Notes: generated from the sequence alone by a model not told the origin. A stretch of 64,000 nucleotides of DNA from Planctomycetota bacterium (GCA_035644495.1 DASQOM010000064.1:15085-79084); one strand, 5' to 3'; numbered from the stretch's first letter, positions 1-29,581 are shown. A program made the numbers and translations.

Positions 1-1067
1 AGCTGGGCGAGGCGGCCCGCCAGCATCTGATACCCGAGCGTCCCCTTCACGAAGAGCTTGCCGGGCGTCGGGCGCCAGGTGTTCACGAGAATGGGGATCA
101 TCAGGATGTCGCTGGACATCTTCCCCGAGATCGGGATGAACGCCCCGCGTGAGAGCTCCTGCGAGAGGGTATCGGCGATCTCGACCTCCGTGGGCATCGG
201 AACGGACTGGTTGGCCGTCTTGAAGAACGGCCGCGTCGGCATCCCCGCGAAGCCGCCCGACCTGGGGCCCGAGGCATCGAGGGCGTGTCCGTGCTGGACG
301 ATGCTCCGCGCGGTCGCGGCCGCCGCGATCCATACGCCCCGCCCCCAGAGGAAGCTCTCGGGCTTGGCGGGATCGAGCGCCTCGGCATGACCGCCCTTGT
401 CCGCCGTATAGGGCGGACGCTGCACCCAGCGGTTCACCGTCATCGCCGTCCAGCGGGCCCCATCCGATTTCTGGAACGCCACCCAGGCGCCGTGCGCCCC
501 GTCGTGCAGCCGCAGCGGGATGTCCTGCAGCTTCGGCAGCAGCTTAAGCTCCTTGAGGCCGAAGAAGCCGGGCGACGCGGCCGCGAGCATCGGCGCCTGT
601 GCGACCTTGCAGAGGTCGGCGACCTGCGAGAGCGTCGAGAGATCGGCGCCCTGGTGCGAGAAGTCGTAGTCGAGGATGACGAGGCCGAGCGGCGGATTCC
701 GCAGCTCCTTCATCTCAGGATCGAAGACGGCCTCCTTGAACCTCGCGACCAGGTCCTTTTGCGTCGCGGAGACGACGTCGACCTGGATGCCCGGCCCCAC
801 GTGGCCCATCAGGAATTTCAGGCCGCGGAACGCCGACTCGACGCGCTGGAACGCGGGATGGTGCAGCGCCGCGTCGGGCGACGCGCCGAGCGCCGCCGGC
901 TCGAAGGCCTTCTCGGTGGAGAACTCCATCTTCGCGCCGTTGACGTCGGCCGCGGGCTTCAGGGCCGCGAGGATCGCATCGCCGTCGGCCGACGGGACGC
1001 GGACGGGGTCCTTCGAGGCGAGTCCGAGATCGGCGACGACGACGAATCTCCATCCCATCGGATTCAT
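1..1067 (-). CDS. Fused TssB-TssC-like sheath paralog (5' part; gene continues beyond window start)
   Basis: Hand translation of the minus strand from ATG at 1065-1067 (AGGAGA-like RBS upstream) gives an uninterrupted 355-codon frame to position 1. N-terminus RFVVVADLGL...VPSADGDAILAALKP...MEFSTEKAFEPAAL parallels TssB (LKFLVMGDFTG...VDKDNFNDVMRGM...LKFSTLKDMEPEAV). Then HHPAFQRVESAFRGLKFLM matches the TssC signature FQKLESAWRGLKLMV of the canonical tssC at 15416. Colinear similarity continues (VDVVSATQKDLVARFKEA vs VNIVNVSKEDLLTDFEDS; APMLAAASPGFFGLKELKLL vs CPFISSAAPKMFGLDSIQKL). It is absent from the ORF track because its stop lies off-window. Confidence 0.6.
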   Translation of the reverse strand, partial: MNPMGWRFVVVADLGLASKDPVRVPSADGDAILAALKPAADVNGAKMEFSTEKAFEPAALGASPDAALHHPAFQRVESAFRGLKFLMGHVGPGIQVDVVSATQKDLVARFKEAVFDPEMKELRNPPLGLVILDYDFSHQGADLSTLSQVADLCKVAQAPMLAAASPGFFGLKELKLLPKLQDIPLRLHDGAHGAWVAFQKSDGARWTAMTVNRWVQRPPYTADKGGHAEALDPAKPESFLWGRGVWIAAAATARSIVQHGHALDASGPRSGGFAGMPTRPFFKTANQSVPMPTEVEIADTLSQELSRGAFIPISGKMSSDILMIPILVNTWRPTPGKLFVKGTLGYQMLAGRLAQ

Positions 1068-1083
1068 GCGCGGTCTCCTGTCG

Positions 1084-2805
1084 TCAATGAAGCGAGATCG
1101 GGACGTCGAAGGCGAGATCGGGCAGGCCCCGCAGCACGCCGCCCTGGGGCTTGACGCGGACGCTGACCGCGGGGCGGCCGTCGGAGACCGGGGCGGCGGA
1201 CGCCGTATAGACGGATCCGGACTCGGTCATGCCCATCAGCTGCAGCGCGGCCGCGATCGTGCGGGCGATGTCGCCGATGCCGTGGGTCATGTCGAGGTGG
1301 GCGAGCAGCGAATCCATCGCGGCGGCGATGTGCGAGGCGAAGAACGCGTAGCGCAGCGTCGTCGTCGGCTCGTCCTTGGCCGCCCGGTAGACGGTCGCGG
1401 TGCCCGCGGCGAAGGGCCGGTCGTTCCCGCGGCGGCAGGCGATGGGCAGGAGGCCGGCCTCGCCCAGGGCATTCGCGGCGGCCTCGGTCAGATCGCTTTC
1501 GAGCGGGGTCGTCTCCCCATCCCCCGGGCGCAGCGGCAGCGCCTCCAGCGCGGCGGCCGCGTCGCGCCCCGCGAAGTCCGAGCCCCAGCCGGTCTTGGCG
1601 AAGCTCGACGCGACGAAGCCGCCGAGCAGCCAGCCGGCGCGCCCCCAGGGGAGCGGCGGCTCCGCGACGGCGAGCTCCTCGAAGGCGAGGTCCCGGGTGG
1701 ACTCGCCCCCGGCGCCATACGGATTCCGGTAGAGGAAACGGTTGGCCGCCAGCGAGAGCCAGCGCGATGCCGGCGCCGAGCGGAGTCGGAGCCATTCGCC
1801 CTGCGACGCGTCGCCCATCCCGGCGGCGAGCTCGCGCAGCGCCACCTCCAGGCCGGCCGACCCGATCAGCGGGAGCGAGCGGGCGGCGGCGTCCTCGGCG
1901 AGCTTCAGCAGCTCCGCCTCGGAGCCGTCGAACGTGAAGTCGAGCAGCAGGCAGGACGTCTTGCCCTGGCTGCGGAGATCGTCGGCGAGCGGAAAGGCCG
2001 CGTCCCGGACCGCCTTGAGGAGGTTCTTGCGGGAGGCGGCGACGACGTGCAGGCGGCAGCCCGCGCGGAAGTCGACGGAGCGGACGAGGAGACGCAGCCC
2101 GCGCCAGGCGGACTCGAGCTCCTGGAATCGCGGATCATGCAGCACCGCGCGGAGCATCGGGGCGACCGCCGTCTCCGCCTGCGCGGCCACCGCTCTCAAC
2201 GCCGCGGGGACGGGCTTCGCGGCCCCGCCGCCGCCGAGGACGGCGTCGATCAGCCTCGCCGTCGTCTTCTCCACCTGCTCGGGCGAGGGTTCGTCGGACG
2301 GCGCGCTCGCGTCCGCGTCCACGAGGTCGAAGATGCTGCCGGTCGGGACGGGGCCCGCGGGCTTCGGGGCCGTCGGCGTCGCGGTCGGAGCCTTGGCGGT
2401 TGTCGAGAGCGCGGTCTCCAGGGCCTTCGCCAGCTGGGGATAGGCGCCGAGCTTTCCGAGCGATTGTTTGACGGAGTCGAGCGATCCGCCGCCCGCGGCC
2501 AGGTCGAGGACCTGCTTCTTGAAGTCGATCAGGTTCGCGAGGGCGGGGACGCGAGTGGCGAGACGGTCGGGGCGGAAGTCCTTGAACTCCTGGAAGGTGA
2601 GGACGGCCCGGGCCCCGCCGACGGGGACGTCGATGGACGGGCCGAGGGACCGCAGCAGCTCGTCGAGCGAGTCCTTGTCGACGGCGCGAGGTCGCGGGGC
2701 TCCGTCGGACCCGGGGAGCAGGTCGGAGATCACGATCAGGTTGAAAGAGGGATCGTTCTGTTCCATAAGCGGCATCTCTCCGACGCGGGACGGACCCCAC
2801 TCCAC
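1084..2805 (-). CDS. Fused TssB-TssC-like sheath paralog (573 aa)
   Basis: ORF 1084..2805. Residues 20-100 (FNLIVISDLLPGS...VDKDSLDELLRSL...LTFQEFKDFRPDRLATRVPAL) align with TssB at 14871. Residue ~228 has the TssC motif FQELESAWRGLRLLV. The C-terminal body is colinear with TssC (LYRNPYG~RLPYS; WLLGGFVASSFAKTGWG~LWGSSAFTFATKIADSF; LRYAFFASHIAAAMDSLLAHL~YRLGTQLPYLFIVNRLAHYIKVL; RPAVSVRVKPQGG~GWYKVDMRVRPHFKYMG). The start codon is uncertain: GTG at 2805 or ATG at 2775 (MPLMEQ). Confidence 0.65.
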   Translation of the reverse strand: MEWGPSRVGEMPLMEQNDPSFNLIVISDLLPGSDGAPRPRAVDKDSLDELLRSLGPSIDVPVGGARAVLTFQEFKDFRPDRLATRVPALANLIDFKKQVLDLAAGGGSLDSVKQSLGKLGAYPQLAKALETALSTTAKAPTATPTAPKPAGPVPTGSIFDLVDADASAPSDEPSPEQVEKTTARLIDAVLGGGGAAKPVPAALRAVAAQAETAVAPMLRAVLHDPRFQELESAWRGLRLLVRSVDFRAGCRLHVVAASRKNLLKAVRDAAFPLADDLRSQGKTSCLLLDFTFDGSEAELLKLAEDAAARSLPLIGSAGLEVALRELAAGMGDASQGEWLRLRSAPASRWLSLAANRFLYRNPYGAGGESTRDLAFEELAVAEPPLPWGRAGWLLGGFVASSFAKTGWGSDFAGRDAAAALEALPLRPGDGETTPLESDLTEAAANALGEAGLLPIACRRGNDRPFAAGTATVYRAAKDEPTTTLRYAFFASHIAAAMDSLLAHLDMTHGIGDIARTIAAALQLMGMTESGSVYTASAAPVSDGRPAVSVRVKPQGGVLRGLPDLAFDVPISLH

Positions 2806-2923
2806 CCTCAGGAGGAGGCGAAGTCAAGCAAAACGAAGGCGGGGCGCTTCCAAACCGCTATCTCCGAGGAGGATCGATTGACACCGGAAGGGCGGCAGAG
2901 GTAAGATTGCTGCCCGGCCGAAC

Positions 2924-5077
2924 ATGAATCAGGGAAAACCCCCCGGAGATTCTATCGACATCCCCCTGCTGGGCTCCTCGGCGGGAGGAAATCTTCGATT
3001 TGAATTGGCTCTCGCGGCGAAGGACGATTCCCTCGAGAGCCGGGACGACCCATTTGTTCCGCTGAACGACTCCAACCGCTTCACCCGCGTGCTCCTGGGC
3101 CGCGTGGCCTCCGGGGACGACCACACGCTGCATCCCGTCGCGGTGAAGATCCAGCGCAGCGTCTACCGCACCGCCGCCTCCGGCGCGGCGAAGGAGACGC
3201 TGAACAATCCGCTGGTCGAGGACATGTGGCGGCGGGAGCGGGAAAACCTGATCCACTGCGCGGGCAACGAGGTCGTGCCGCTGGTCGATCTGGGCGAGCA
3301 GCTGTTCCGGAACCCTCCGGTGACGTTCTGCAAGAAGATCCGCGCGTACTTCCATCCGCTCTGCCCCCGCTGCCGCGGGCCGCTGCGCGACTGCCGCGAC
3401 GACGCGCTCCTGCTGGACCTCAACCTGCCGGAGTATTCCCGCTCCCTGGTGCGGTACCTGTATTGCGCCGCCTGCGCGGCGAAGCCCGGCCGCAAGACGT
3501 TCTACACCACCGCGAGCCCCGCGGAGGACAAGCAGAAGGGGGACGTGGAGATCCGCCGCCGCGGCGAGCTCTACCGCGACTTCGGCGCGATCGTGAACGG
3601 GCTGTCCGCCGAAGAGCAGGCCCGGCTGTCCATCGCCTTCCCCTGCGCGGCGTGCCTGCACCGCGTGGAGTGCTATCCCGCGGAAGGCGCGAGCGGCAAG
3701 CCGATCCCCGCGGAGTCCCGGCTCGTGCCCGTGTCGTACTATGACTTCCATCTCCTTCCGCTGGAAGTGATGGAGCTCCATTATGACGAGATGAGCGACC
3801 TCCTCGGGGGCGCCTCCTGGCAGGTCCTGCGCGACCGGATCCGGAAGACGGCCGCCCCCGGCCGCGACCTCGTGCTGTCGGCGGTCGACGAGGTCTTCAC
3901 CTCCCCGGTGCAGTGGATCTATCGCGGCGACACGACGGGCCGCTTCGCGCTGGAGGTGCTCCACCTCAAGCTCAGCCTCTTCAGCCAGCTCAGCCGCGGC
4001 CTCCGCGCCTATCATGCGCGCTGCCGCGAGCCGCACCTCGACGTCAGCCCGAGCCAGGTGATGGTCGACATCGTCCCGGGCAGCACGAATCTTCCCGCCC
4101 GCTGGAATTTCCGCGTGCGGCTGATCGGCGTGGCGGGACCGCACCGCTTCGCGACCGAGGGAGCCCCCGAGGGGGCGCTGCCCCCGCTGCTCGTGCCGGC
4201 GCCCGACGCGGACAAGATCTTCATCTCCCCCTTCATCCGGAAGGCCGAGTTCGGCCGGGAGGAGCAGCTCCGCGTCACGATCCGGTCGATCCGCTCCGAA
4301 GGCGGCCACCTCAGGCTCGAGGGCAGCGCGTCCTCGGAACGGTCGCGGCTGGAAAACGTCCAGCCCGGCGACGTGATCCGGATGGCCTCCGCCTCCGCGG
4401 GCGGCCCGCTGGAGGGGGTCACGATCTGGGGCACCATCGCGGGCCCGGAGGAGCGCGGCATCCGCTTCACCGCGACGCTGGACGCCGCTTCGGGGCTCGA
4501 TCCGTCGAAGAAGCCCGGGGATTTCGACGCGGGCGTCGCCTTCTTCCCGAGGTTCCAGGTCCCCTGCGACCTGTTCGGGCTGGGGATGCTCTTCTTCCGG
4601 ACGCTGGTGGTCAACGACGGGACCGATCTGCTGGCGGTGGACGACGCCGTCCACCGCGTGCTCAAGAAGCTCACGCTCTGGCTCGAGGGGAAGAAGTCCC
4701 CCGCGGCCGCGCGCGTGGCCGGCGAGCTCATGCCGATCGTGGAACGCGAGAAAGAGGTGTTCGCCTCACCCTCGGTCCTGTACCTGCAGGAGGACCGGGA
4801 GGAGCGGGTGCGCGCGCTGCCGGCGAAGCTCTGGTCGGACATCCTCCTCTTCGGCTTCAAGCTCGTCACCTCGGTGCCGGGCTTCAGCTTCGCCACGGGC
4901 CATGCCGACTTCCGCGCCGAGAAGCCGGAGTCGCTCCTGGACCAGGTGATGACCGAGCTGGCGACGCTGGAGGACCGCGTCCGCATCGAGCTGTTCTCGA
5001 AAACCGAGCGGGACCGCGAGATCTTCGAGATCTGCAGCGAGCTTCTGGACCAGCTGCCGGGGCCGGGACGGGTCTGA
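2924..5077 (+). CDS. Hypothetical T6SS-associated protein (717 aa) with Cys-pair zinc-ribbon-like motifs; first gene of the T6SS operon
   Basis: Long ORF 4 nt upstream of fha, same strand, so it is very likely co-transcribed with it. It contains CPRC...(26 aa)...CAAC and CAAC...C motifs. There is a weak kinase-like stretch LLGRVASGDDHTLHPVAVKIQ but no HRD or DFG motif. I recognise no family. Confidence 0.5.
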   Translation: MNQGKPPGDSIDIPLLGSSAGGNLRFELALAAKDDSLESRDDPFVPLNDSNRFTRVLLGRVASGDDHTLHPVAVKIQRSVYRTAASGAAKETLNNPLVEDMWRRERENLIHCAGNEVVPLVDLGEQLFRNPPVTFCKKIRAYFHPLCPRCRGPLRDCRDDALLLDLNLPEYSRSLVRYLYCAACAAKPGRKTFYTTASPAEDKQKGDVEIRRRGELYRDFGAIVNGLSAEEQARLSIAFPCAACLHRVECYPAEGASGKPIPAESRLVPVSYYDFHLLPLEVMELHYDEMSDLLGGASWQVLRDRIRKTAAPGRDLVLSAVDEVFTSPVQWIYRGDTTGRFALEVLHLKLSLFSQLSRGLRAYHARCREPHLDVSPSQVMVDIVPGSTNLPARWNFRVRLIGVAGPHRFATEGAPEGALPPLLVPAPDADKIFISPFIRKAEFGREEQLRVTIRSIRSEGGHLRLEGSASSERSRLENVQPGDVIRMASASAGGPLEGVTIWGTIAGPEERGIRFTATLDAASGLDPSKKPGDFDAGVAFFPRFQVPCDLFGLGMLFFRTLVVNDGTDLLAVDDAVHRVLKKLTLWLEGKKSPAAARVAGELMPIVEREKEVFASPSVLYLQEDREERVRALPAKLWSDILLFGFKLVTSVPGFSFATGHADFRAEKPESLLDQVMTELATLEDRVRIELFSKTERDREIFEICSELLDQLPGPGRV

Positions 5078-5080
5078 CGC

Positions 5081-6367
5081 ATGACCTCCTATAAATTCGT
5101 CGTGAGCCTGACGACCTCGAAGGAACTGGCGCCGTCGGAGCACGTCCTGAGCAAGGACAAGATCATGATCGGCCGCTCGGCCGAGAACGACATTCCCCTT
5201 CCCGACAACGAGAAGCGGGTTTCGAGCAAGCACGCCCGCGTGGAGCGCGAGGGGACGAGCCTCCAGATCACCGACCTGGGCAGCACCAACGGGACCTTTG
5301 TCAACGGCCGGAAGATCGACGCCAATTCCGCGGTGGAGCTGAAGGACGGGGACAAGCTGTCGATCGGCCTGTACTCCCTCCTCGTGACGGCCGAGGAGGA
5401 GGATTCGGGCGACCGGACGATGGTCCTGGTCGATCCGTCGCGCCAGCTCGCGCAGCTGGTGGACGAACTGCCGGTCATCTACGCCCGGCATTCGGCCGCC
5501 CCGGAGGAGCAGCGACGCAGGATGCTCCGCGGGATGATCCAGTCGATGGTCAACTCCGTGGGTCCGGACAACGCCCGTTCCATCCTGATGCAGCTCCGCT
5601 CGCGGTTCCGTCCGGCGGACGGCGGCGTCGTGCCGGAGCGGACGACGGCGATCCGCCGCAAGGAGGCGGAGGTCAAGGCGCAGGAATCGTTCTCCTCGGC
5701 GGGGATGCGGGTGATGGGCGACCTCTCGGCGCAGTTCGTGGGCGAGGGGAAGCTCGAGACGACGGAACAGGCGGATCTCTTCGGGAAGCTGCTCGCCAAC
5801 GTGCTGGAGCTCACGTTCGACTGGATCTCGAAGAGTCTGCGGGGCCGCAAGGAGTTCGAGGAGCAGTTCAGCGCGGACCTCTCGATGATCTTCTCGAAAG
5901 AAAAGAACCCGCTCAAGGGGGGCGGCGGCCCCGGGGACATGGGGCGGTATCTCCTGGACTGGCGGGTGGCCCGGGACCCGAAGGGCATCCGGGACGCGCT
6001 GGACAACGCGTTCAAGGACCTGACCATGCACCAGCTGGGGCTGCTGGCCGGCGTCCAGGAGTCCCTCTCGGCGGTGCTGAAGCGTCTGGACCCGAAGGTC
6101 GTCGAGCAGGAAGGCAAGGAGATGGGCAAGGGCGGCTTCCTGGCGAGCTCGGAGAAGAAGGCCTGGAAGCGCTACTCGGAGGTCTTCCACGAGATCTTCG
6201 CCGAGAACAGCAAGCTGTTCAACGAGCTGATCTATCCGAACGTCCGGAAGGGGTATCTCGCGCTGCACGACAACGACGCCAAGGCGGGCGCGGAGAAGAA
6301 GGGGGACTCGACGAAAAAGGGGCCTGCCGCCCCGCCGTCCATCACGCAGAGAAATCCGGCTCAATAA
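5081..6367 (+). CDS. fha: FHA-domain protein (TagH/Fha-like T6SS regulator)
   Basis: N-terminal FHA signature: IMIGRSAENDIPLPDNEKRVSSKHARVEREGTSLQITDLGSTNGTFVNGRKI. Position between the novel protein and tssJ. Confidence 0.8.
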   Translation: MTSYKFVVSLTTSKELAPSEHVLSKDKIMIGRSAENDIPLPDNEKRVSSKHARVEREGTSLQITDLGSTNGTFVNGRKIDANSAVELKDGDKLSIGLYSLLVTAEEEDSGDRTMVLVDPSRQLAQLVDELPVIYARHSAAPEEQRRRMLRGMIQSMVNSVGPDNARSILMQLRSRFRPADGGVVPERTTAIRRKEAEVKAQESFSSAGMRVMGDLSAQFVGEGKLETTEQADLFGKLLANVLELTFDWISKSLRGRKEFEEQFSADLSMIFSKEKNPLKGGGGPGDMGRYLLDWRVARDPKGIRDALDNAFKDLTMHQLGLLAGVQESLSAVLKRLDPKVVEQEGKEMGKGGFLASSEKKAWKRYSEVFHEIFAENSKLFNELIYPNVRKGYLALHDNDAKAGAEKKGDSTKKGPAAPPSITQRNPAQ

Positions 6368-6381
6368 AGGGAGGAAAAGAG

Positions 6382-6825
6382 ATGAGAAAGACCGCCATGC
6401 TGGGAGCGGCGCTGACGTTGCTCAGCGCCTGCGGGGGAGGACCGACCTGGATGTACCTCCGCGGCGTCAAGCCCATGAACGAGAACGAGCGGAAGGAATC
6501 GAATGCCGTCGACGTCCGCATCTACCAGTTGAAGGACGACTCGCGCTTCAACCAGGCGACCGTCGACAAGCTGTGGACGGACGAGAAGGGCGCGCTGGCC
6601 GACGACCTGATCGCGATGAAGACGATCACGATCCAGCCCGGCGTCGCCGACGACAAGGCGACCGAGATCAACCTGGGCGACCTGCCCGACAGCGTGCGCT
6701 TCATCGGCGTGCTCGGCCTCTTTCCGAAGGAGGACGACAAGGGGCCCCGGAAGCTGGCGATCGCGAAGGCGAATTCGGGCGGCATCCTCCGGCTGACGGG
6801 CTACCACATCCTGGCGGAAAAATAG
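6382..6825 (+). CDS. tssJ: T6SS outer-membrane lipoprotein TssJ
   Basis: 147 aa with signal peptide and lipobox (MRKTAMLGAALTLLSAC). Size and position immediately upstream of tssK/tssL/tssM are typical of TssJ. GGGAGG RBS. Confidence 0.75.
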   Translation: MRKTAMLGAALTLLSACGGGPTWMYLRGVKPMNENERKESNAVDVRIYQLKDDSRFNQATVDKLWTDEKGALADDLIAMKTITIQPGVADDKATEINLGDLPDSVRFIGVLGLFPKEDDKGPRKLAIAKANSGGILRLTGYHILAEK

Positions 6826-6850
6826 TCCCGGACTCTATCAGGAGCCTTCC

Positions 6851-8200
6851 GTGGAATACGCGCAGAAAGTCCTGTGGAGCGAGGGGATGTTCCTCACCCC
6901 GCACCACTTCCAGCAGGCCGACCGATACATGGAGAGTCTGATCTCCCGGCGGCTCTCGGCGCTCCGGCCCCTCGGGTGGGGGGTCTGCCGGATCCAGATC
7001 AACACCGACGCGCTGGCCAACGGCGAGATGGTGCTGTCGAAATGCTCGGCGATCCTGCCCGACGGGATGGCGGTGGACACGCCGGATCTGGACCCGCTTC
7101 CGCCGGCGCGGCCCATCGAGGCGGCGTTCGACGCGAAGCGCAATTCCCTCGGGGTCTACCTGGCCTCCCCCCTGGCCCGGGCCGGCGGGGTGGCGTTCAG
7201 CGCGGAGGGCGCGGCCGACGGCCGGCCCACGCGGTACCACCGGCGCTCGCTGACGGCGTCGGACGAGAACAGCGGCGGCAGCGAGCGGGAGATCATCCTC
7301 GCGTCGAAGACGCTGCGGATCCTGTTCGACGGCGAGCCGCCCGACGATTACGCCACCCTGAAGATTGCGGAGCTGTCGCGGAGCGCGTCCGGAAAGTTCG
7401 CGCTGAACGAGTCGTACGTCCCGCCCTGCCTGCTGCTCTCCTCGTCGCCGCAGCTGGTGGCATACGTGCGGCGAATCCTCGAGATGATCTCGGCGAAGAG
7501 CAGCGATCTCTCGTCGACGCGGCGCCAGCGCTCGGCGGGCCTGGTGGAGTTCACGATGTCGGAAGCCGCGAACTTCTGGTTCCTGCACACGGTCAACGCG
7601 ACGATCCCGGTGCTGATGCACCTGCACAACCAGGGGGACGTGCATCCGGAGGAGGTCTTCCTGGTCCTCGCCCGCCTCGCAGGCGAGCTGTTCACGTTCT
7701 CGGGCGAGGGGCATCCGAAGGACCTTCCCGCCTACAGTCACGACGCGGTCGGCGCGTCGTTCTCGGCGATGGAAAAGAAGATCTCCGACCTCATGGGGAC
7801 GATCATCCCGACCAAGTGCGCGCCGATCCCGCTGGAGAAGCTGCGCGACTCGCTCTTCAAGGGCCAGCTGCGGGACGACCGTCTGCTCGACGGGCAGTTC
7901 TACCTGGCGGTGAGCGCCGAAGTGCCCGAGGAGAAGATCATCAAGGAAGTGCCGCTCAAGGCGAAGGTGAGCTCCAGCGACCGCGTGGACCAGCTGATCG
8001 CGGCCGCGCTCAAAGGGCTCCTCCTCCGCCATCTGCCGACGCCGCCGTCCGAGATTCCGGTCCAGCCCGGCCGGCAGTATTTCCAGGTGGACAAGTCCGG
8101 CGAGCACTGGGAGGCGGTGAAGAAGTCCCGCTCGATCTCGTTCTACATCCCGCCCGAGTTCAAGAACCTGAAACTCGAACTGATGGGAGTGAAGGAATAA
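6851..8200 (+). CDS. tssK: T6SS baseplate subunit TssK
   Basis: N-terminus VLWSEGMFLTPHHFQQADRY is the classic TssK start. 449 aa. Confidence 0.9.
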   Translation: MEYAQKVLWSEGMFLTPHHFQQADRYMESLISRRLSALRPLGWGVCRIQINTDALANGEMVLSKCSAILPDGMAVDTPDLDPLPPARPIEAAFDAKRNSLGVYLASPLARAGGVAFSAEGAADGRPTRYHRRSLTASDENSGGSEREIILASKTLRILFDGEPPDDYATLKIAELSRSASGKFALNESYVPPCLLLSSSPQLVAYVRRILEMISAKSSDLSSTRRQRSAGLVEFTMSEAANFWFLHTVNATIPVLMHLHNQGDVHPEEVFLVLARLAGELFTFSGEGHPKDLPAYSHDAVGASFSAMEKKISDLMGTIIPTKCAPIPLEKLRDSLFKGQLRDDRLLDGQFYLAVSAEVPEEKIIKEVPLKAKVSSSDRVDQLIAAALKGLLLRHLPTPPSEIPVQPGRQYFQVDKSGEHWEAVKKSRSISFYIPPEFKNLKLELMGVKE

Positions 8201-8203
8201 CGC

Positions 8204-8884
8204 ATGGCTGAATCAACGCCGACGGCCGCACCGCCGGCCCTGGCCGATCTCTGCGGCGACCTGCTGGCCTTCCAGCTCCAGCTGAAACGCTCGAGCGACC
8301 CGGGCGACGCCGAGGTCCTCCGCCAGAAGATCGACGAGCAGTTCCGCGCGCTGGAGACCAGGGCGCGGCAGGCCGACGTCCCGCAGGAGGACGTGCAGCA
8401 GGCCAAGTACGCGATCGCCGCATTCATCGACGAGATGATCCTGACGTCGTCGTGGGGGCTCAAGGATTCGTGGGCGGACAAGCCGCTCCAACTGGCCTAC
8501 TTCAACGACTTCGCCGCGGGCGAGGAGTTCTACAACAAGATCGACGCCCTCCGGGGCGCCAAGCGCAACAACGTGCTCGAGGTGTACTACCTCTGCCTGG
8601 CCCTGGGATTCCGGGGGAAATACGTGGACCTTCAGGGGATGGAGAAGAAGAAGGTCCTCATGGACACCATGCTGCGCGAGATCCGGGGGGCGGTGCCGGC
8701 CGTGCCGGCGGCCACGGGATTGTCGTCGTCCTGGCAGCCGCCGGACGCCCTGCCCGGCATCGTGAAGAATTTCCCGGCCTGGTTCGTGGCGGCGGCCTGC
8801 GGCCTGTTCATCATCCTGTTGTTCATCCTGCTGTCCACGCTGCTCGGGTCGTCGGCGGAAAACCTGGTCAAGTCCCTGAACTGA
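8204..8884 (+). CDS. tssL: T6SS membrane subunit TssL (DotU family)
   Basis: DotU-like N-domain (AKYAIAAFIDEMILTSSWG...WADKPLQLAYFND) plus a C-terminal TM helix. 226 aa. Confidence 0.85.
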   Translation: MAESTPTAAPPALADLCGDLLAFQLQLKRSSDPGDAEVLRQKIDEQFRALETRARQADVPQEDVQQAKYAIAAFIDEMILTSSWGLKDSWADKPLQLAYFNDFAAGEEFYNKIDALRGAKRNNVLEVYYLCLALGFRGKYVDLQGMEKKKVLMDTMLREIRGAVPAVPAATGLSSSWQPPDALPGIVKNFPAWFVAAACGLFIILLFILLSTLLGSSAENLVKSLN

Positions 8885-8900
8885 GGAAAAGGCGGAGAGC

Positions 8901-11900
8901 ATGAAGATCCTGGCGGCGATCGCAAAGGGAGGAACCACCCTTCTCCTCCTGCTCATCATCATCCTGCTCCTGATCTGGTTCGGGGGCGAGCAGTTCCATC
9001 TCGACAAGAAGATCCGCGTCATCGCGATCAGCGCGGTCCTGGCCATCGCGATCATCCTGGTCGTGATCCAGAAGTTGATGGCGGTCCGCAGCGCGCTGCT
9101 CATCGAGCAGAAGCTGAAGGCGCAGGCGCAGGAGCAGGTCGCCAGCGCCCGGCCCGACCAGCGCGCCGACGTCCAGGCCGTTCAGACCCAGCTCGACGAA
9201 GCCATCCAGGCCCTGAAGACGTCCCGCCTGGGCAAGGGCGCGCTCTACAAGCTGCCCTGGTACATGATCATCGGGCCGCCCGGCTCGGGCAAATCCACCG
9301 CGCTGCAGGAGTCCGGCCTGAACTTCCCCTATACCAGCCAGGGCAAGAAGGGGCTGCGCGGCGTCGGCGGCACCCGAAACTGCGACTGGTGGTTCACCGA
9401 CGAGGGCATCCTGCTCGACACCGCCGGCCGCTACACCACCGAGATCGACGACCGCGACGAATGGATCGGGTTCCTCAACCTGCTCAAGCAGGCGCGCAAG
9501 CACAAGCCGATCAACGGCGCCATGGTCGCTGTCAGCGTCTCCGACCTCCTCGGCTCGACCGAGGAGCAGCTCGAAGCGCACGCGAAGAACATCCGCGGCC
9601 GCGTCGACGAGCTGACGTCGACGCTCGAGATCGTGTTCCCGGTATACCTCCTGTTCACCAAGTGCGACCTGCTCCAGGGCTTCGTGGAGTTCTTCGAGGA
9701 CTTCTCGAAGAACGACCGCGCCCAGGTCTGGGGCTGCACCCTGCCCTACGCGCCTTCCGCCGGGAAGCCGTACCGGGAGATCTTCGAGGAGGAGACCGGA
9801 AAGCTGTTCAAGAACCTCTCGTCCCAGCGACTTTCGTCGCTGGCGACGGAGCGGCCGCCCCTGAAGAAGCAGAACATCTTCCTCTTTCCGCTGCAGTTCC
9901 AGGCGGGCATCAAGAAGATGGCGGACTTCGTCGAGGCTCTGTTCAAACCCAATCCCTTCCAGGAGACCTCGTACTTCCGCGGCTTCTATTTCACCAGCGG
10001 CACCCAGGAAGGGACGCCCATCGACCAGGTGATCAAGTCCATGAGCGCCGCCTTCGGCCTCAAAGAGGACGCCGCCCCCGCCCCGGCCGCGGTCGACAAG
10101 AAGAGCTACTTCATCAACCATCTGTTCACGAAGATCATCTTCCCGGACCAGACGCTGGCGCGGACGTCGGCGAAGGTGCTGAAGCGGCAGAAGATCGTGC
10201 ATTTCGGCACCCTCGCCCTTTCGGCGGTGGGGACGGTCCTGGTCACGATCATCCTGATCACCGCCTTCTTCGGGAACCGGAGCCTCATCAACTCCACCGA
10301 GGCGGCCGTGGCCAAGATGAAGGAAAGCGAGAAGCTGCCGCCCGCTGCAAGCCTGGAGGCGCTGGACGGCCTGCGCCACGAGATCGAGGCGCTGGACGAC
10401 TTCGACCGCAACGGCGCCCCGATCGCCCGGCGCTGGGGACTCTATCGCGGCAACGTCATCAATCCCCATGTCCGGAGCTATTACTTCGCCTCCCTCAAAC
10501 GGATCTTCCTCGTGCCCTGCGGGGACCGGATCCGGAAGGAGCTGGACGAGATCTTCCGGAAGGAGGCGCGGACGCCGGAGGACAACGAGCGGCTGGACGA
10601 CCTGCAGCGCGTCTACCAGATGCTCGCCGGAGAGCTGCCCGCCGAGAAGGAGCGCGATCTGCTCGAGAACATCCTGTCCAAGGAAGGCCGCTGGCTGAGC
10701 GGCGTGGGCGGCCAGCCGTCGCCGCTCGCGGACCGACAGCTCAAGCTCTTCCTCACCCAGCTCGACCGCAAGGACGAGTGGCGGATCCCCGTGGACAAGA
10801 TGATCATCAACCGGATCAACACCGAGCTGCGCCAGGGCCTCTGGGTGCTGCAGAGCTTCCGGGAGATCATCGACGCCGGCAAGAGCTCCTTCCCCAAGGT
10901 CACGGGCGAGCGCTTCGTCAGCGGCCGGGGCAAGGACCTGCTCAAGTTCAACTACTCGTTCCCCGGGCTCTTCACCCAGGAGGGCTGGAACGACTATATG
11001 AAGTCGGCCCTCAAATCCAAGGCGGAGTCCCTCGCGCGGCGCTACAAGGAGCTACAGATCGAAAAGGACCCCGTCAAGCTGGAAGCCGAGCTCCGCGAGC
11101 TCTACGTCCGGAAGTACGGGTCGGAGTGGGACGAGTTCCTGAAGGGGATCGAGGTGCTCCCCTTCCAGAACATGGAGGATTGCGACACCAAGACGAAGAC
11201 CCTGACGGACGACCAGTCCCCCTTCATCGCGCTGTTCAAGGGCGTCTGGGAGGCCCAGAACCTCCGGGTGTCCGACACGGACGTGCCCGTCATCGTCGAT
11301 CTGAAGCCGCTGACCGAGGCGCGGACGGCGTTGATCGACCTGCAGGTGCTCGTGGGCGACTTCATCGCGACGACGCAGCCGGGCAATCGCGTGGCCGGCT
11401 CGATGAAGGAGGGCAAGCTGCAGCCATTCCTGGACGGCTTCAAGAAGGCGAACCGGGGGCTGACGACGGCGGTGAACACCGCCCCGGCGCTCAACCGGCC
11501 CCGGATGCAGGAGATTCTGTACCAGGTCATCGACAAGACCCGGGCCTCCCTCGCTCTCGAGGCTCAGAAGGAGGCCGACGAGATGTGGGCGAACACCGTC
11601 GCGAAGCTCTATAAGGAATCCATCGTCGGCCGCTACCCCTTCGATGAGACCTCCGCGTCGGCGGTGTCGATCGCGGCGATCACGCTCCTTTTCAATCCGC
11701 AGACCGGCGTGTTCTGGAACAAAGTCAACGATCTGCGGATCCTCAACGGCCTCAACCTGGAGAGCAAGCCGCTGGTGGCCTTCTCCCGCGACTTCAATTC
11801 GTCGGTGAAGAAGGCGGAGTCCTTCCGCCAGGGCCTGTTCCGGAAAGACGGGGACCGCATCAACGTGCCGTTCAAGGTCACGCTCAAGCAGCGCGAAGGC

Positions 11901-12266
11901 GTCACCCACCTCAAGTTCACGGTCGGCAAGAAGGAGTTCAACCACAACGACCGGCCCGACAACCGCGGCGATCTGGTCTGGGAGGGCGAAGCGGGAGCCA
12001 GCCTGCAGATCCGGGTGGCCGGGGTGGACCGCTGGCACCCGAAGGAGTTCAAGGACGACTGGGGCCTGCTGCGCCTCATCGCGTCGGGGAGTCCCCAGCC
12101 GTCGGGCGACAAGAGCTTCGCCTGCTCGTGGGATTTCAAGATCACGCGGCTCGGGACGGATCAGGTCTTCGTCGGAGACGTGCTCCTCGAGGGCGACGAC
12201 CGCGTGAACCCGTTCCAGAAGGATTTCTTCTCAAAGTTCAGCGTCCCCGACAAGGTGGGTCCCTGA
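8901..12266 (+). CDS. tssM: T6SS membrane subunit TssM (IcmF family)
   Basis: 1121 aa. N-terminal TM helices and a Walker A motif (GPPGSGKST). IcmF-like length and context. Confidence 0.9.
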   Translation: MKILAAIAKGGTTLLLLLIIILLLIWFGGEQFHLDKKIRVIAISAVLAIAIILVVIQKLMAVRSALLIEQKLKAQAQEQVASARPDQRADVQAVQTQLDEAIQALKTSRLGKGALYKLPWYMIIGPPGSGKSTALQESGLNFPYTSQGKKGLRGVGGTRNCDWWFTDEGILLDTAGRYTTEIDDRDEWIGFLNLLKQARKHKPINGAMVAVSVSDLLGSTEEQLEAHAKNIRGRVDELTSTLEIVFPVYLLFTKCDLLQGFVEFFEDFSKNDRAQVWGCTLPYAPSAGKPYREIFEEETGKLFKNLSSQRLSSLATERPPLKKQNIFLFPLQFQAGIKKMADFVEALFKPNPFQETSYFRGFYFTSGTQEGTPIDQVIKSMSAAFGLKEDAAPAPAAVDKKSYFINHLFTKIIFPDQTLARTSAKVLKRQKIVHFGTLALSAVGTVLVTIILITAFFGNRSLINSTEAAVAKMKESEKLPPAASLEALDGLRHEIEALDDFDRNGAPIARRWGLYRGNVINPHVRSYYFASLKRIFLVPCGDRIRKELDEIFRKEARTPEDNERLDDLQRVYQMLAGELPAEKERDLLENILSKEGRWLSGVGGQPSPLADRQLKLFLTQLDRKDEWRIPVDKMIINRINTELRQGLWVLQSFREIIDAGKSSFPKVTGERFVSGRGKDLLKFNYSFPGLFTQEGWNDYMKSALKSKAESLARRYKELQIEKDPVKLEAELRELYVRKYGSEWDEFLKGIEVLPFQNMEDCDTKTKTLTDDQSPFIALFKGVWEAQNLRVSDTDVPVIVDLKPLTEARTALIDLQVLVGDFIATTQPGNRVAGSMKEGKLQPFLDGFKKANRGLTTAVNTAPALNRPRMQEILYQVIDKTRASLALEAQKEADEMWANTVAKLYKESIVGRYPFDETSASAVSIAAITLLFNPQTGVFWNKVNDLRILNGLNLESKPLVAFSRDFNSSVKKAESFRQGLFRKDGDRINVPFKVTLKQREGVTHLKFTVGKKEFNHNDRPDNRGDLVWEGEAGASLQIRVAGVDRWHPKEFKDDWGLLRLIASGSPQPSGDKSFACSWDFKITRLGTDQVFVGDVLLEGDDRVNPFQKDFFSKFSVPDKVGP

Positions 12267-13192
12267 TGCGACTCTCCGCCGGATGTTTCGGGAAGCTGCC
12301 GATCCACGGCGACTTCATCCGCCACAACGTCGGTCCCGAGGTGGACCGTCTGGACGAGTGGCTCCAGGCCGGGATCGTCTCCTCCCGCACGGCCATGGGG
12401 ACGGCCTGGGACGGGTCGTTCGACGCCACCCCGCCGCAGCGCTTCCTCTACCAGGTTGCCGGGGGGCGCGTGGTGGCGGGGGTGGTCGCAGCGTCGATCG
12501 ACAAGCCGGGCCGGCGCTACCCGTTCCTGATCTTCACGATCCTGGATCCGAAATCACTGGGGGGCGAGGTCACGTCGCTCCCCGCCCAGCTGAGCTCGTT
12601 CTTCCACCGGGCGGAGCAGGAGGCCCTGACGGGGTGGCAGGGGCAGGAGTTGAAGAGCTATCTCACGAGGATCGATGCGCTGGCCCTGCCGGCGGATTTC
12701 GAGGATGCGAAACAGTCGCTGATCAAATTCGTCGCGGGCCAGACCGTGCAGGCCTTCTGGAACACCCTGTTCGGTTCGGACCAGGATCCCCGCAAGTACA
12801 TGCTGATCCACAACCTCGTGGAGACTCTGAAGGGCGGGGCGGTGCCGAAATACGCGCTGCGCTTCCCGCAGGTCTCGGCCGACGCGGAGGTGGCGTTCTG
12901 GGAGGAGCTGTGCCGGAAGCTGGCCCGCCGGCCCGGGCTGCCCACGCTGTCGCTCTGGGGCAGCGGGAGGGAGGCCGGGCATCCGGGGCTGTCGATGGTC
13001 TTCGACGACCTGAAGGCGACCTACTTCTCGGCGCTGTGGTGGCCCGAAAAGAAGAACAACCTGATGTTCCCCCTGGCCGAGGAGACCGCCGGGACGGATA
13101 CGCGGCTGTCGGCGGCCAAGAGCAAGTATGCTGCATTGCTGGACGACGGGAACATGCGGCTGTCGAATTTGATGGTCCGGCTTGGATCCTGA
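12266..13192 (+). CDS. tagF: T6SS-associated protein TagF
   Basis: Start MRLSAGCFGKLPIHGDFIRHN matches the TagF (DUF2094) N-terminal motif. ATGA overlap with the tssM stop. Confidence 0.8.
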   Translation: MRLSAGCFGKLPIHGDFIRHNVGPEVDRLDEWLQAGIVSSRTAMGTAWDGSFDATPPQRFLYQVAGGRVVAGVVAASIDKPGRRYPFLIFTILDPKSLGGEVTSLPAQLSSFFHRAEQEALTGWQGQELKSYLTRIDALALPADFEDAKQSLIKFVAGQTVQAFWNTLFGSDQDPRKYMLIHNLVETLKGGAVPKYALRFPQVSADAEVAFWEELCRKLARRPGLPTLSLWGSGREAGHPGLSMVFDDLKATYFSALWWPEKKNNLMFPLAEETAGTDTRLSAAKSKYAALLDDGNMRLSNLMVRLGS

Positions 13193-13296
13193 GCGGGTGC
13201 GGGTAAAATCAGTTGCCTTGGAATAATGGCGGGATTATCTTCAGGGCTGCCTTGGTCCCGGTCCCGCCGCAGTGAACACTGAGGGAGGAGTCGACT

Positions 13297-14829
13297 TTGC
13301 CTGATGCCGCCACTCTCGCCGTTCTGGGGACAGCCCCGATTCCGGGGGCGATTCCCGCCGGCGCGTCGGCCCGTTATGAGCCGGAATTCGAGCGTCTCTC
13401 CGCCGAGATCGCCAAGCTGGAATCGCCCGAGGGCCGAAACTCCCTGAAGTGGAACGACGTCATCGATTTCTGCTCCACGATTCTGAAATCCAAGTCCAAG
13501 GATCTCCTGGTCGCCTCCTATCTGACCATGGGGCTCTACCAGAAGAACAGCTATAGCGGACTCGCCACGGGGCTCACCATTGTCCGGGACATCCAGAAGA
13601 CCTTCTGGGACGGACTGTTCCCGGAGGCCACCCGGCTGCGGGCCCGCGCGGCGGCCCTGCAGTGGATGTCCGAGCGCATCAGCCCGGTCATCGCGGAAAA
13701 GTCCTCGGCATCGAAGTCCAGCAAGGACGTCCTGACGTCCTGCGTGGCGCTGCTCGACGAACTGGGGCAGATCGCCGGCGAGAAATACGGAGAGACTCCC
13801 CCCGACTTCGGCGAGCTCGCGCGGGCCGTCCGCGGCAAACTCGATTCCATCCCCGAGGACAAGCCCGTCGAGGAGGGCAAGTCCGAATCCTCCTCCCCGA
13901 CTTCCTCCGGCGGCGGCGCCCCGGTTGCCGCCGACGTCAGCACGCCCGAGGCGGCTCGGGCGGCGATCCCGATGCTTGCGGAGCAGCGGGTAAAGGTGGC
14001 CCTCGTGCTCCGGGCGGCGACGCCGACGGACCCTCTCCCCTATCGCATGGTGAGGACGGCGCTCTGGGAGGACATCGTCGAGCTTCCGCCCGCGACGGAA
14101 GGGGTGATCCCGGTGCCGGGCGGGGATGCAACGTTCGCCACCCAGGCGGACGAACTGCTCAACAAGGGCGACTATCCGACGCTGCTGACCGAGGCCGAGT
14201 CGCGGATGGGAGCCAACCCCGTCTGGCTGGACCTCAACCTCTACGTCTTCCGGGCGATGGAAGGCCTGGGGCGCCCGTATCTGAATGCGCGCAAGGTGGT
14301 GGCCGATGAGACGGCGGCCTTCGCGCGCCGCCTTCCCGGGCTGCTCGAGGTGAAATTCCAGGGCAACATCCCGGTGGCGTCCGAAGCGACGCGAATGTGG
14401 CTGCTGCACGAGGTGTCGGCGGGGACGGGAGGCGGGTCCGGCGGGAAGACGTCGGCGCTGGATACGGCGCTGACGGAGGCGCGGAAGCTGATCGCGCGGA
14501 AGCAGTTCGCCGAGGCGACGGGGCTGGTGCTCAAGGAGCTGGACAAGTCGGCCCATCGACGCGACCGCTTCCTCTGCCGGCTGGGCCTCGCGAAGCTCTG
14601 CCTCGAGGGCGGCCGGATCGAGCTGGCCCTGCCGCAGCTGCTGGCCCTGGACGAGGAGGCCCGCAAGTTCGCGCTGGACGAGTGGGAGCCGATGCTCTCC
14701 GCGGACCTGGTGCGGGAGCTGTGGAAGTACTATAAGGGGTCGGCGACCCCGGAGAAGGGCGACGCGTTCTATTCGCGGCTGTGTCAGCTGGATCCCGGGA
14801 CGGCCTTGGCGGCCAACGGGCTCAAGTAA
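13297..14829 (+). CDS. tssA: T6SS protein TssA (ImpA N-terminal domain)
   Basis: ImpA_N-like N-terminus (ARYEPEFERLSAEIAKLESPEG...WNDVIDFCSTILKSKSKDLLVASYL). 510 aa. TTG start. Confidence 0.85.
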   Translation: MPDAATLAVLGTAPIPGAIPAGASARYEPEFERLSAEIAKLESPEGRNSLKWNDVIDFCSTILKSKSKDLLVASYLTMGLYQKNSYSGLATGLTIVRDIQKTFWDGLFPEATRLRARAAALQWMSERISPVIAEKSSASKSSKDVLTSCVALLDELGQIAGEKYGETPPDFGELARAVRGKLDSIPEDKPVEEGKSESSSPTSSGGGAPVAADVSTPEAARAAIPMLAEQRVKVALVLRAATPTDPLPYRMVRTALWEDIVELPPATEGVIPVPGGDATFATQADELLNKGDYPTLLTEAESRMGANPVWLDLNLYVFRAMEGLGRPYLNARKVVADETAAFARRLPGLLEVKFQGNIPVASEATRMWLLHEVSAGTGGGSGGKTSALDTALTEARKLIARKQFAEATGLVLKELDKSAHRRDRFLCRLGLAKLCLEGGRIELALPQLLALDEEARKFALDEWEPMLSADLVRELWKYYKGSATPEKGDAFYSRLCQLDPGTALAANGLK

Positions 14830-14870
14830 AATAGAGAGTCTGATTTTATTTCCCCGTCAGGAGGAAGGTC

Positions 14871-15374
14871 ATGGCGAAGGAAGGATCGGTAGCGCCCAGG
14901 GAACGGGTCAACATCGTGTACAAGCCCGCCACGGGTGACGCGAAGGAGGAGAAGGAACTGCCCCTGAAGTTCCTCGTGATGGGCGACTTCACGGGCCGTC
15001 CGGACGACCGGACGCTGGAAGACCGGAAGCCCGTCAACGTCGACAAGGACAACTTCAACGACGTCATGCGGGGCATGAACCTCAGCGCCACGTACTCGGT
15101 GGCTGACAAGCTTTCCGGCAAGGAGGGGTCGGAGATCCCGGTCAACCTCAAGTTCTCGACCCTGAAGGACATGGAGCCCGAGGCCGTCGCGCGCCAGGTG
15201 CCCGAACTCAACAAGCTGTTGGAGCTTCGCGAGGCGCTGACGGCGCTGAAGGGGCCCCTGGGCAACCTGCCGGAGTTCCGAAAGAAGATCCAGTCGCTGG
15301 TGTCCGATCCCGCCGCCAAGGAGAAGCTCCTGAAGGAGCTCGGCGGCGGCGCTGCGCCGGAAGAGAAGAAGTAG
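14871..15374 (+). CDS. tssB: T6SS sheath small subunit TssB (VipA)
   Basis: 167 aa. LKFLVMGDFTGRPDD...PVNVDKDNFNDVMRGM...VNLKFSTLKDMEPEAVARQVPEL. Confidence 0.9.
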   Translation: MAKEGSVAPRERVNIVYKPATGDAKEEKELPLKFLVMGDFTGRPDDRTLEDRKPVNVDKDNFNDVMRGMNLSATYSVADKLSGKEGSEIPVNLKFSTLKDMEPEAVARQVPELNKLLELREALTALKGPLGNLPEFRKKIQSLVSDPAAKEKLLKELGGGAAPEEKK

Positions 15375-15415
15375 GGTGATCGAGTACTTCCTGAAGACAT
15401 AAGGAGAACCATTCC

Positions 15416-16903: not shown

Positions 16904-16999
16904 CGCCTTCTCCGAGTTGGTCGTCTAATCATAACTTTGGCACCCGGTCGCGGTGGCCGGGGGGATGGAAAAGTGAAACCTTAGTGGGAGCATACAGCT

Positions 17000-17494
17000 A
17001 TGCCTATGGGAGCGACGGGAGCCGGTTCGACCAAGCTGTTCATGAAGATCGCGGGCATCAAGGGCGAGTCGTCCTACACCAAGTGGAAGGACAAGGACTG
17101 CTCGGACATTGACAGTTTCACGATGTCGGCCGGCGCGACCTGGGACTTCACCTCCGGCAAGTCCACCTCAGGATCGGTCGGTTTCTCCGGCGTGACGGTG
17201 AGCCGTTCGCTGGTGGGAGCGTCCCCGGTCCTGTTCATCGGCACGCTCAAGGAGCAGAAGACCGCCAAGGTCGAGGTCTTCCTCGGCAATGAGACCGGCG
17301 GCGACCCCCTTCTCACGATCGAGCTCAGCGGCGAGGTCCGGCTGACGTCCGACGGGATCGCGGGTTCGACGGGCGGCGACGTGATGGAATCCATCACGTT
17401 CACGGCGCCCAAGGTTCTCGTGAAGCGCGGCGACATCTCGAGCGACATCAACTTCCAGGACATCGCCGGCAAGAACGACGACCTCTCCATGTAA
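17000..17494 (+). CDS. hcp: Hcp (TssD) tube protein
   Basis: 164 aa. KLFMKIAGIKGESSYTKWKDK... is the Hcp N-terminal motif. GGGAG RBS 9 nt upstream. Confidence 0.85.
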   Translation: MPMGATGAGSTKLFMKIAGIKGESSYTKWKDKDCSDIDSFTMSAGATWDFTSGKSTSGSVGFSGVTVSRSLVGASPVLFIGTLKEQKTAKVEVFLGNETGGDPLLTIELSGEVRLTSDGIAGSTGGDVMESITFTAPKVLVKRGDISSDINFQDIAGKNDDLSM

Positions 17495-17557
17495 TGATCG
17501 ATGCCGGTACCCCCGCCCCGGCGCGCGGTCCGGGGCGGGGGCCGGCTTCTCTTCGCA

Positions 17558-17971: not shown

Positions 17972-17982
17972 GCGGGCTTCCC

Positions 17983-23352: not shown

Positions 23353-23361
23353 GAGACCCCC

Positions 23362-25938: not shown

Positions 25939-25944
25939 GAAGCC

Positions 25945-28565: not shown

Positions 28566-28569
28566 TGCC

Positions 28570-29565: not shown

Positions 29566-29581
29566 GGAGAGAGAGGACGCC

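Follow-up and report, generated by a model that had tools for sequence, protein, structure and literature searches.

The window analysed in this work is a stretch of 64,000 nucleotides from a Planctomycetota bacterium (GCA_035644495.1, DASQOM010000064.1:15085-79084), and its left end carries two tandem genes, hereafter A and B, that run divergently from a complete gene cluster for a type VI secretion system (T6SS). Both encode single-chain equivalents of the core of the TssB-TssC heterodimer of T6SS sheaths, with the β2 and β3 strands of TssB. A first-pass annotation of the window had described A and B as two single-chain TssB-TssC fusions of unlike architecture, A keeping a linker region whereas in B little separates the TssB-like part from the TssC signature, and both the fusions and this contrast were borne out by Pfam, by profile-profile comparison with hhalign and by structural models. 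What that annotation had not noticed is that both copies have lost the first ~28 residues of TssB. The coordinates of the features are collected in Table 1.

Table 1. Features of genes A and B and of the neighbouring T6SS cluster, in window positions; residue numbers are those of the proteins.
Feature	Position	Strand	Basis or remark
Gene A, TssB-TssC fusion, 560 residues	1084..2766	-	Stop codon 1084-1086
GGAGAG ribosome-binding site, 9 nucleotides 5' of the ATG of A at 2766	2776..2781	-	Sequence read
A residues 5-122, TssB-like: β2, β3, C-terminal helices	2401..2754	-	hhalign, Pfam, PDB chains
A residues 122-138, Pro/Ala-rich disordered linker joining the TssB-like and TssC-like parts	2353..2403	-	pLDDT, conservation
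A residues 139-151, motif P-x-G-x-x-F-D-L-V-D	2314..2352	-	Aligned with GSLLDEIM of canonical TssC (hhalign)
A residues 542-560, C-terminal tail with the last β strand	1087..1143	-	Model strands, conservation
Gene B, first 355 of 436 residues within the window; C-terminal 81 residues beyond the edge	1..1067	-	Open reading frame and database protein
GGAGA ribosome-binding site, 6 nucleotides 5' of the ATG of B	1074..1078	-	Sequence read
B residues 3-61, TssB remnant, directly joined to the TssC signature helix (HHPAFQRVESAFRGL)	885..1061	-	hhalign
T6SS cluster, divergent from A and B	2924..30355	+	Pfam scans
Canonical separate tssB	14871..15374	+	Pfam VipA 194 bits, full length
Canonical separate tssC	15416..16903	+	VipB and VipB_2 domains, Pfam 430 and 146 bits
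clpV of the cluster	20704..23352	+	
Gene of 307 residues at the tagF position	12283..13206	+	No Pfam match in the window

The longest open reading frame (ORF) of gene A, 1084..2805, reaches a GTG codon at 2805, and the ATG at 2766 is the likely start; the resulting protein is 100% identical to P0001 (HZE96173.1), from a Planctomycetota metagenome-assembled genome (MAG). Pfam recognised in it VipA (PF05591, 33.3 bits for a cut-off of 24, ORF residues 39-131 matching positions 52-152 of a profile of 155) and, downstream, VipB (PF05943, 103.7 bits, cut-off 27), and both parts were also seen by NCBIfam. When a profile of 30 proteins of the A family was compared by hhalign with a profile of 60 canonical TssB sequences, residues 5-122 of A aligned with TssB 29-159 (probability 98.8%, E 1.4e-16), and full-length comparison placed A 138-464 on TssC 15-372. 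The architecture of A is therefore TssB(29-159), a disordered Pro/Ala linker, and TssC from residue 15 onward. For each T6SS sheath whose structure is in the PDB, the A-family profile likewise picked up both kinds of chain, the TssC-type one and the one of VipA/HsiB1/IglA type; in VipA and HsiB1, the alignment begins at about residue 31-41. A retains domain 3 of the sheath protomer: the C-terminal helices of TssB are present, aligned to TssB 108-159 and seen at residues 74-121 of the AlphaFold model (predicted local distance difference test, pLDDT, 81; predicted template modelling score, pTM, 0.79). Foldseek searches with this model retrieved chains of TssC (E 1.6e-16) and, in a separate match, chain 5urw_1A, the TssB of Myxococcus.

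The region between the two halves of A is disordered in the model, with pLDDT below 50 at residues 123-161, and the columns of the linker have a conservation of 0.46 against a protein average of 0.70. The short motif of Table 1 (peptide PVPTGSIFDLVDA) stands out at 0.77 between flanks of 0.46-0.48; it varies little or not at all within the A family, and its residues P141, G143 and V149 are invariant in 30 of 30 members. Its GSIFDLVD is aligned with the GSLLDEIM at the N-terminus of canonical TssC (counterpart peptide GSLLDEIMVQ), a motif that the canonical TssC of the window also carries, and differs from it at the last hydrophobic position. At the other end, the C-terminal ~95 residues have diverged, two helices and three strands (520-526, 533-540 and 551-556) remaining in the model, and the tail is among the best conserved segments of the protein (0.80). 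By comparison with the sheath described in PMC5807055, these strands may correspond to β11-13 and the tail to the C-terminal donor linker of TssC. The secondary structure of the model thus suggests a C-terminal domain of TssC type; Pfam found no match to PF18945 (VipB_2) in A or in B, the latter scanned minus its last 81 residues.

The possibility that B is a fragment or a pseudogene was rejected, since the full protein is present in the database (P0077, HZE96172.1), with 436 residues and 100% identity over the part within the window; the copy running off the window is intact. Pfam found in B only VipB (137.8 bits, cut-off 27), and neither Pfam nor NCBIfam gave a match to a TssB profile. Its likeness to TssB comes from profile-profile comparison only, in which residues 3-61 aligned with TssB 29-107 (hhalign probability 86.6%, E 4.5e-6) and with the N-terminus of A (96.3%, E 1.6e-9), and residues 58-430 with positions 77-487 of the 495 of canonical TssC (E 2e-47). 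That the N-terminal segments of the two proteins are simply the normal N-terminus of TssC was rejected, as the corresponding hhalign probability was 0.05-0.4% (0.05% for B). B can be described as TssB(29-107) followed by TssC(77-end): its alignment ends at TssB 107, the C-terminal helices of TssB are absent, and all of domain 3 (TssB 108-167, TssC 1-76) is missing, including the ClpV-binding region. The AlphaFold model of B (pLDDT 92, pTM 0.92) reached a template modelling (TM) score of 0.72 to VipB in Foldseek, and the models of A and B have in common an N-terminal strand-strand-helix-strand-strand pattern. The conservation of B is comparable to that of A. Because only 16 nucleotides separate the stop of A from the start of B, the two genes are probably co-transcribed.

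In solved sheaths, β2 and β3 of TssB build domain 2 with TssC, and the last three C-terminal strands form an acceptor hairpin and a donor strand; the T6SS sheaths solved in the PDB always consist of two chains with interlocking termini. Each protomer donates the N-terminal strand of TssB and the C-terminal strand of TssC and accepts two strands on the TssC hairpin (PMC5807055), the two donor arms and the acceptor hairpin making up a four-stranded handshake (PMC5807055, PMC5813253). Domain 3, composed of the C-terminal helix of TssB and the N-terminal helices of TssC, is the outer domain with the ClpV target (Salih et al., PMC5807055), and the N-terminal helix of TssC is the ClpV binding site in Vibrio cholerae. 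Both linkers are directed to the ring nearer the baseplate, with TssE proposed as the acceptor for those of the first ring, and the composition of the distal end has been left open, sheath subunits arranged otherwise being possible there (PMC5813253). In both A and B, the alignments begin at TssB column 29, and the β1 strand and the linker that follows it are absent, only 5-7 residues lying ahead of β2. The starts of both genes are secure because of their ribosome-binding sites, because their homologues have common starts and because the open frame upstream of B, in which no arm-like sequence was found, is the out-of-frame 3' end of A. Of the N- and C-terminal arms of the handshake, the N-terminal one is thus missing from both proteins, and the C-terminal arm and the acceptor hairpin appear to be kept in both.

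The loss of segments of the canonical subunits from both copies would fit decaying duplicates without function, and so would their NCBIfam scores, by which A and B are not equivalogs: for TIGR03355 (TssC), A and the partial sequence of B reached 103.1 and 135.1 bits, respectively, far below the equivalog cut-off of 271.5, and for TIGR03358 (TssB), A reached 31.3 bits against 97.25. Nevertheless, we consider decay to be very improbable. At 90% identity, 76 protein clusters match A and 109 match B, mostly over their full length, and intact ORFs are found in most of these clusters, down to ~40% identity. Moreover, the native codon bias of A and B (GC content at third codon positions of 0.92-0.93, matching the adjoining T6SS genes), their good ribosome-binding sites, their very confident fold predictions and their segment-specific conservation all speak against it. 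The matching sizes of the contigs of these relatives indicate that those of A and those of B co-occur.

The divergent cluster opens with a gene for a 717-residue protein of no recognised family, followed by fha, tssJ, tssK, tssL, tssM, the 307-residue gene, tssA, tssB, tssC, hcp, tssE, tssF, tssG, clpV and vgrG, and it ends with genes for a DUF2169-pentapeptide protein, a DUF3540 protein, a PAAR-like toxin and Imm49. It had been presented by the first-pass annotation as a complete T6SS with its own separate tssB and tssC, and these two genes as well as tssA, E, F, G, J, K, L and M, hcp, clpV and vgrG were confirmed. The canonical TssB of the window retains the β1 arm (APRERVNIVYKP). A single set of hcp, tssE, F, G, K and vgrG is present within the window, and no second tail-like system was found in its remaining 30 kb.

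The same annotation had also considered that A and B might belong to another contractile injection system, located upstream of the window, and indeed B crosses the left edge, so that further genes could stand beyond it. Three related contigs (L072, 465 kb; L074, 103 kb; L079) bear on this point. In all three, an A-like/B-like pair is located at the edge of a T6SS cluster and always adjoins the cluster opening with its gene for a ~710-720-residue protein and fha. In L072 and L074, the pair (561-563 and 436 residues) is divergent from a ~722-residue gene without Pfam matches, after which come fha, tssJ, K, L, M and a TagF_N gene, the latter being the positional counterpart of the 307-residue gene of the window; in L079, a Ser/Thr kinase gene lies between the ~709-residue gene and the pair. 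Beyond the B-like gene, the three contigs differ, with DUF7133, TetR and PQQ genes in L072, PIG-L and transglutaminase genes in L074, and DUF6263 and kinase genes in L079. Because the genes beyond the pair are unrelated and specific to each contig, this argument from related contigs effectively excludes a second contractile system upstream.

The arrangement of a long fused gene with a short fused gene is a conserved module. In L078, a 583-residue arm-less long form and a 447-residue short form stand upstream of vgrG and DUF2169. This contig, from forest soil, has three successive sheath-like genes at 6194-11347 (a 441-residue short form, the 583-residue long form and the 447-residue short form), and the locus, as far as examined, showed no canonical tssB.

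An exhaustive search with A yielded 3126 relatives at E <= 0.001. Among the 150 best representatives at 50% identity, 128 combined a TssB-like with a TssC-like part in a single polypeptide, and their median length was 612 residues; about one third of the fusions start at β2, as A does, and the others have at least 25 N-terminal residues, some of them with an arm-like strand (G-IRISSDPE, ITVTFG). The arrangement had been thought undescribed, and our literature searches brought up no paper on TssB-TssC fusions occurring in nature, but it is not rare: the single-chain fusions form a large family, to which the databases already assign both Pfam domains. The public annotation of both A and B, 'contractile sheath large subunit', conceals the fusion as well as the trimming. 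A scan of genome contigs with a fused query gave no close relatives and mostly canonical tssB-tssC pairs, because such a query matches both genes at ~25% identity.

In loci with an informative context, fused genes stand alongside canonical tssBC and do not take its place. L004 and L066 have canonical tssBC plus a fused gene, and L082 has, in order, a partial first gene (probably tssB), tssC, hcp, tssE, F, G, clpV, the fused gene, vgrG, DUF2169, a gene without assignment, DUF3540 and a PAAR-like gene, its effector module being the same as that of the window. The fused genes within these clusters are located at 8466-10346 in L082 (626 residues), at 19456-21231 in L004 (591 residues) and at 14093-16075 in L066 (660 residues), directly after clpV in L082 and L004. 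That the fused protein is the only sheath was rejected for the window, L082, L004 and L066, in which canonical sheath genes are also present. Other fused genes are orphans or stand in scattered loci. In two contigs, L080 (10001-15656) and L081 (5467-11054), an orphan fused gene of ~620 residues, far from other T6SS genes, is followed by a gene for a ~1200-residue subtilase with Peptidase_S8, BACON and FlgD_ig domains. A fused-sheath-like stretch also occupies residues 1044-1420 of a 2151-residue protein, P0294, which could represent either a still larger fusion of several domains or an error of assembly.

In a neighbour-joining tree of 361 shared core columns with 200 bootstraps, all single-chain forms, including B, were set apart from canonical TssC (191/200), A was nested among arm-less forms of ~600 residues (189/200), and the B family was monophyletic (200/200). 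The fusion had been described as duplicated, and A and B are neighbours in the tree, but with moderate support (123/200). A second, independent fused group comprised the proteins of L003, L060, L004 and L065 (194/200), of which those of L003 and L060 stop near TssC 370 and hence have no C-terminal domain. The fusions of L003 (5456-7078), L007 (7720-9342) and L060 (4570-6171), of 533-540 residues and from Acidobacteriota and Flavobacteriales MAGs, keep an arm-like N-terminal strand and are without the whole C-terminal handshake domain; this trimming is the opposite of that of A and B and would, on paper, make a better terminator. Second TssC genes, without a TssB part, unlike A and B, were found in the clusters of L024, L048, L050 and L064, and the L048/L064 type lies apart from A and B in the tree.

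A and B share the fold of canonical TssB and TssC (VipA/VipB, HsiB1/HsiC1, IglA/IglB), with its elements in unchanged order. In both, β2 and β3 of TssB are interlaced with the TssC core, and the signature helix, the C-terminal helices and three terminal strands are recognisable; A alone also has the helices of domain 3 and, where canonical TssC carries its N-terminal motif, a motif of its own. Their best structural matches are TssC chains (TM 0.67-0.73), and for A a TssB chain too. They differ from the canonical pair in being single polypeptides without the β1 linker of TssB, encoded beside that pair, and they have diverged from it in sequence, with a mean identity to canonical TssC of ~23-24% over the core columns, their close relatives being ~27-29% identical to the TssC of the window.

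As A and B are each equivalent to a full protomer, they might together build an alternative second sheath, used under other conditions on a shared baseplate, tube and membrane complex, much as the first-pass annotation had envisaged with a second specialised sheath. Clusters with several sheath paralogs do exist, as in the four contigs with second TssC genes and in Agrobacterium, where TssC40 stands beside TssC41, is non-redundant with it and has a role left undefined (PMC3702570). The Agrobacterium case is the nearest described precedent, being likewise an extra sheath-like paralog in a cluster with a working TssB-TssC pair, although the protein is set apart from A and B by its description as a TssC homolog. 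Fused relatives in L075 and L077 have, in addition, no separate tssB or tssC within ~10 kb on either side. However, A and B are without the N-terminal linker, one of the two interconnecting strands in T6SS and pyocin sheaths, and a tube made of them would amount to six unlinked protofilaments. The absence of the linker from both copies weakens the proposal further because linker length is critical in V. cholerae, whose sheath needs an N-terminal linker of exact length for contraction, two or more extra residues abolishing it (PMC5797969). B would moreover not be recyclable, as the region recognised by ClpV is missing, and hcp, tssE, F, G, K and vgrG occur only once in the window. An alternative sheath is thus improbable.

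We tentatively favour another reading, in which A and B would be accessory protomers, attached to one end of the TssBC sheath and unable to pass contraction sideways; they would then be neither a second machine nor the main sheath. This reading comes closest to the capping or positional subunit, which is preferred among the options of the first-pass annotation. In favour of accessory status, canonical tssB and tssC belong to the same cluster as A and B, the pairs of L072, L074 and L079 stand at the cluster edge, and fused relatives adjoin canonical sheath genes in L082, L004 and L066. Since the acceptor and the C-terminal donor seem to be kept, A and B should be able to attach to canonical subunits and to be attached by them; since the second link is impossible, A and B alone should not give a laterally cross-linked contractile tube, which points to accessory end protomers. 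A and B might co-assemble with canonical TssBC through the C-terminal linker and the acceptor sheet and occupy a terminal position of one or two rings, beside the baseplate or at the distal end, as a baseplate-proximal adaptor or a distal cap. The sheath would thereby gain a defined end without sideways mechanical coupling, and ClpV would act on A, recognising and removing it, whereas B would escape. Such proteins may have arisen by duplication of tssBC, fusion of the two genes and loss of the β1 arm, followed by a second duplication of the fused gene and deletion of domain 3 in B.

The missing β1 linker in A and B would also be expected if the two proteins were soluble regulators or decoys, that is, TssBC mimics that cannot be laterally cross-linked and that bind growing sheath ends, TssA or ClpV, thereby limiting sheath length, holding a reserve of subunits or recruiting ClpV through the motif of A. 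Indeed, a conserved short motif in a disordered, unconserved linker is typical of partner-binding peptides, and that of A is aligned with the N-terminal motif of canonical TssC. Post-translational regulators are also at hand: FHA in the cluster, TagF_N in L072 and L074, and kinases both in the window (of Ser/Thr type) and, in L079, immediately ahead of the A-like gene. On the other hand, a whole sheath core with a conserved C-terminal donor tail exceeds what a decoy peptide needs, and B, without the motif and without domain 3, is conserved as well as A. Regulators or decoys are thus rather unlikely, though they shade into accessory protomers acting as caps, and sequence alone does not tell the two ideas apart.

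Several points weigh against accessory end protomers. The sheath position, the co-assembly and the ClpV binding of A and B are deduced rather than observed. Donor/acceptor logic does not fix the sheath end at which they would stand: an intact acceptor sheet makes no obvious terminator, and a first ring without N-terminal linkers would offer TssE only 6 of 12 linkers. The C-terminal ~95 residues of A were not aligned with canonical TssC by hhalign, their assignment coming from model secondary structure only, and the binding of A to ClpV is uncertain because IFDLVD, compared with LLDEIM, has lost the last hydrophobic position. The sister relation of A and B has only the bootstrap value given above, and neighbour-joining on sequences of ~25% identity is prone to long-branch artefacts. 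Finally, as some of the fused relatives are orphans away from T6SS clusters, a single role for the wider family may be doubtful.

Sheath paralogs with fixed positions occur in extracellular contractile injection systems. In the antifeeding prophage (AFP) and the Photorhabdus virulence cassettes (PVC), cryo-electron microscopy structures restrict some of the sheath paralogs (Afp2/3/4, Pvc2/3/4) to baseplate-proximal layers, and systems of this type are not recycled by ClpV. With several single-chain sheath paralogs per locus, these systems may offer the nearest functional analogy to A and B, which would be one of role and not of membership. The Foldseek lists of A and B do include sheath chains of AFP, of PVC and of the baseplate maps of the Streptomyces contractile injection system, but their sheath family is a different one (8-13% identity, TM about 0.3-0.6). 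We know of no T6SS with position-specific sheath paralogs. The sheath subunit of R-type pyocins, which is not recycled, resembles B in being one chain with domains 1 and 2 only and without domain 3 (PMC5807055). It has N- and C-terminal arms, whereas B has a C-terminal one only, and B, unlike the pyocin subunit, is clearly derived from TssC by its sequence.

Other genes around the pair deserve mention. The 717-residue protein (2924-5077, plus strand), the first gene product of the T6SS operon, gave no significant Pfam match even at E up to 1 (best 0.023) and no PDB sequence match, and genes for proteins of 709-722 residues stand at the equivalent place in L072, L074 and L079. Visual inspection of its sequence suggests a Cys-x2-Cys stretch resembling a zinc ribbon and the kinase-like motifs VAVK and HLDVSPSQV, and it may be a pseudokinase partnering the FHA protein. 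Between A and this gene, a sigma-70-like promoter match (2878-2907, plus strand; TTGACA, an 18-nucleotide spacer and TAAGAT, 10/12 positions) faces the main operon; no comparable match for an A-B transcript was found in this intergenic region. The effector module (25945-33719, plus strand) comprises the DUF2169-pentapeptide and DUF3540 genes, the PAAR-like toxin (28570-29565), Imm49 (29582-30355), a second pentapeptide-repeat protein of 639 residues (31030-32949) and a small Aspzincin_M35 metallopeptidase-like protein (33156-33719). Just beyond it, on the minus strand, are located a 982-residue Ser/Thr protein kinase (33737-36685) and a sigma-70 family protein resembling those of extracytoplasmic function (36753-37442). 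Together, this kinase and the one directly upstream of the A-like gene in L079 give a hint of control of this T6SS by threonine phosphorylation. Further away, in a 760-residue ORF (49339-51621, minus strand), the match to chaperonin Cpn60/TCP-1 begins only at residue 211, which points either to a true start farther into the ORF or to an unusual extension at the N-terminus.

Textbook models of the T6SS present the sheath as a homotypic TssBC polymer. The natural single-chain versions imply that the fold does not require TssB and TssC to be separate chains, and that trimmed protomers evolved repeatedly. A, which is without the linker, and B, which is also without domain 3, are in this sense natural deletion mutants, and the deletions affect elements thought to control the coupling of contraction and the recycling by ClpV. 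Thus, specialised end subunits are possible in T6SS sheaths, as in extracellular injection systems. One may speculate, with more reserve than for the accessory nature of A and B itself, that the sheaths of Planctomycetota, and of the other phyla with fused genes, are heterotypic, with a first or last ring, or rings, of linker-less single-chain protomers. If this were true, rings of A and B would determine the point at which contraction begins or ends and the site of ClpV engagement, B forming a ring free of domain 3 and invisible to ClpV, and A a ring that ClpV can address. With these natural variants, the definition of the sheath end, the setting of sheath length and the initiation of contraction and disassembly would become directly testable.

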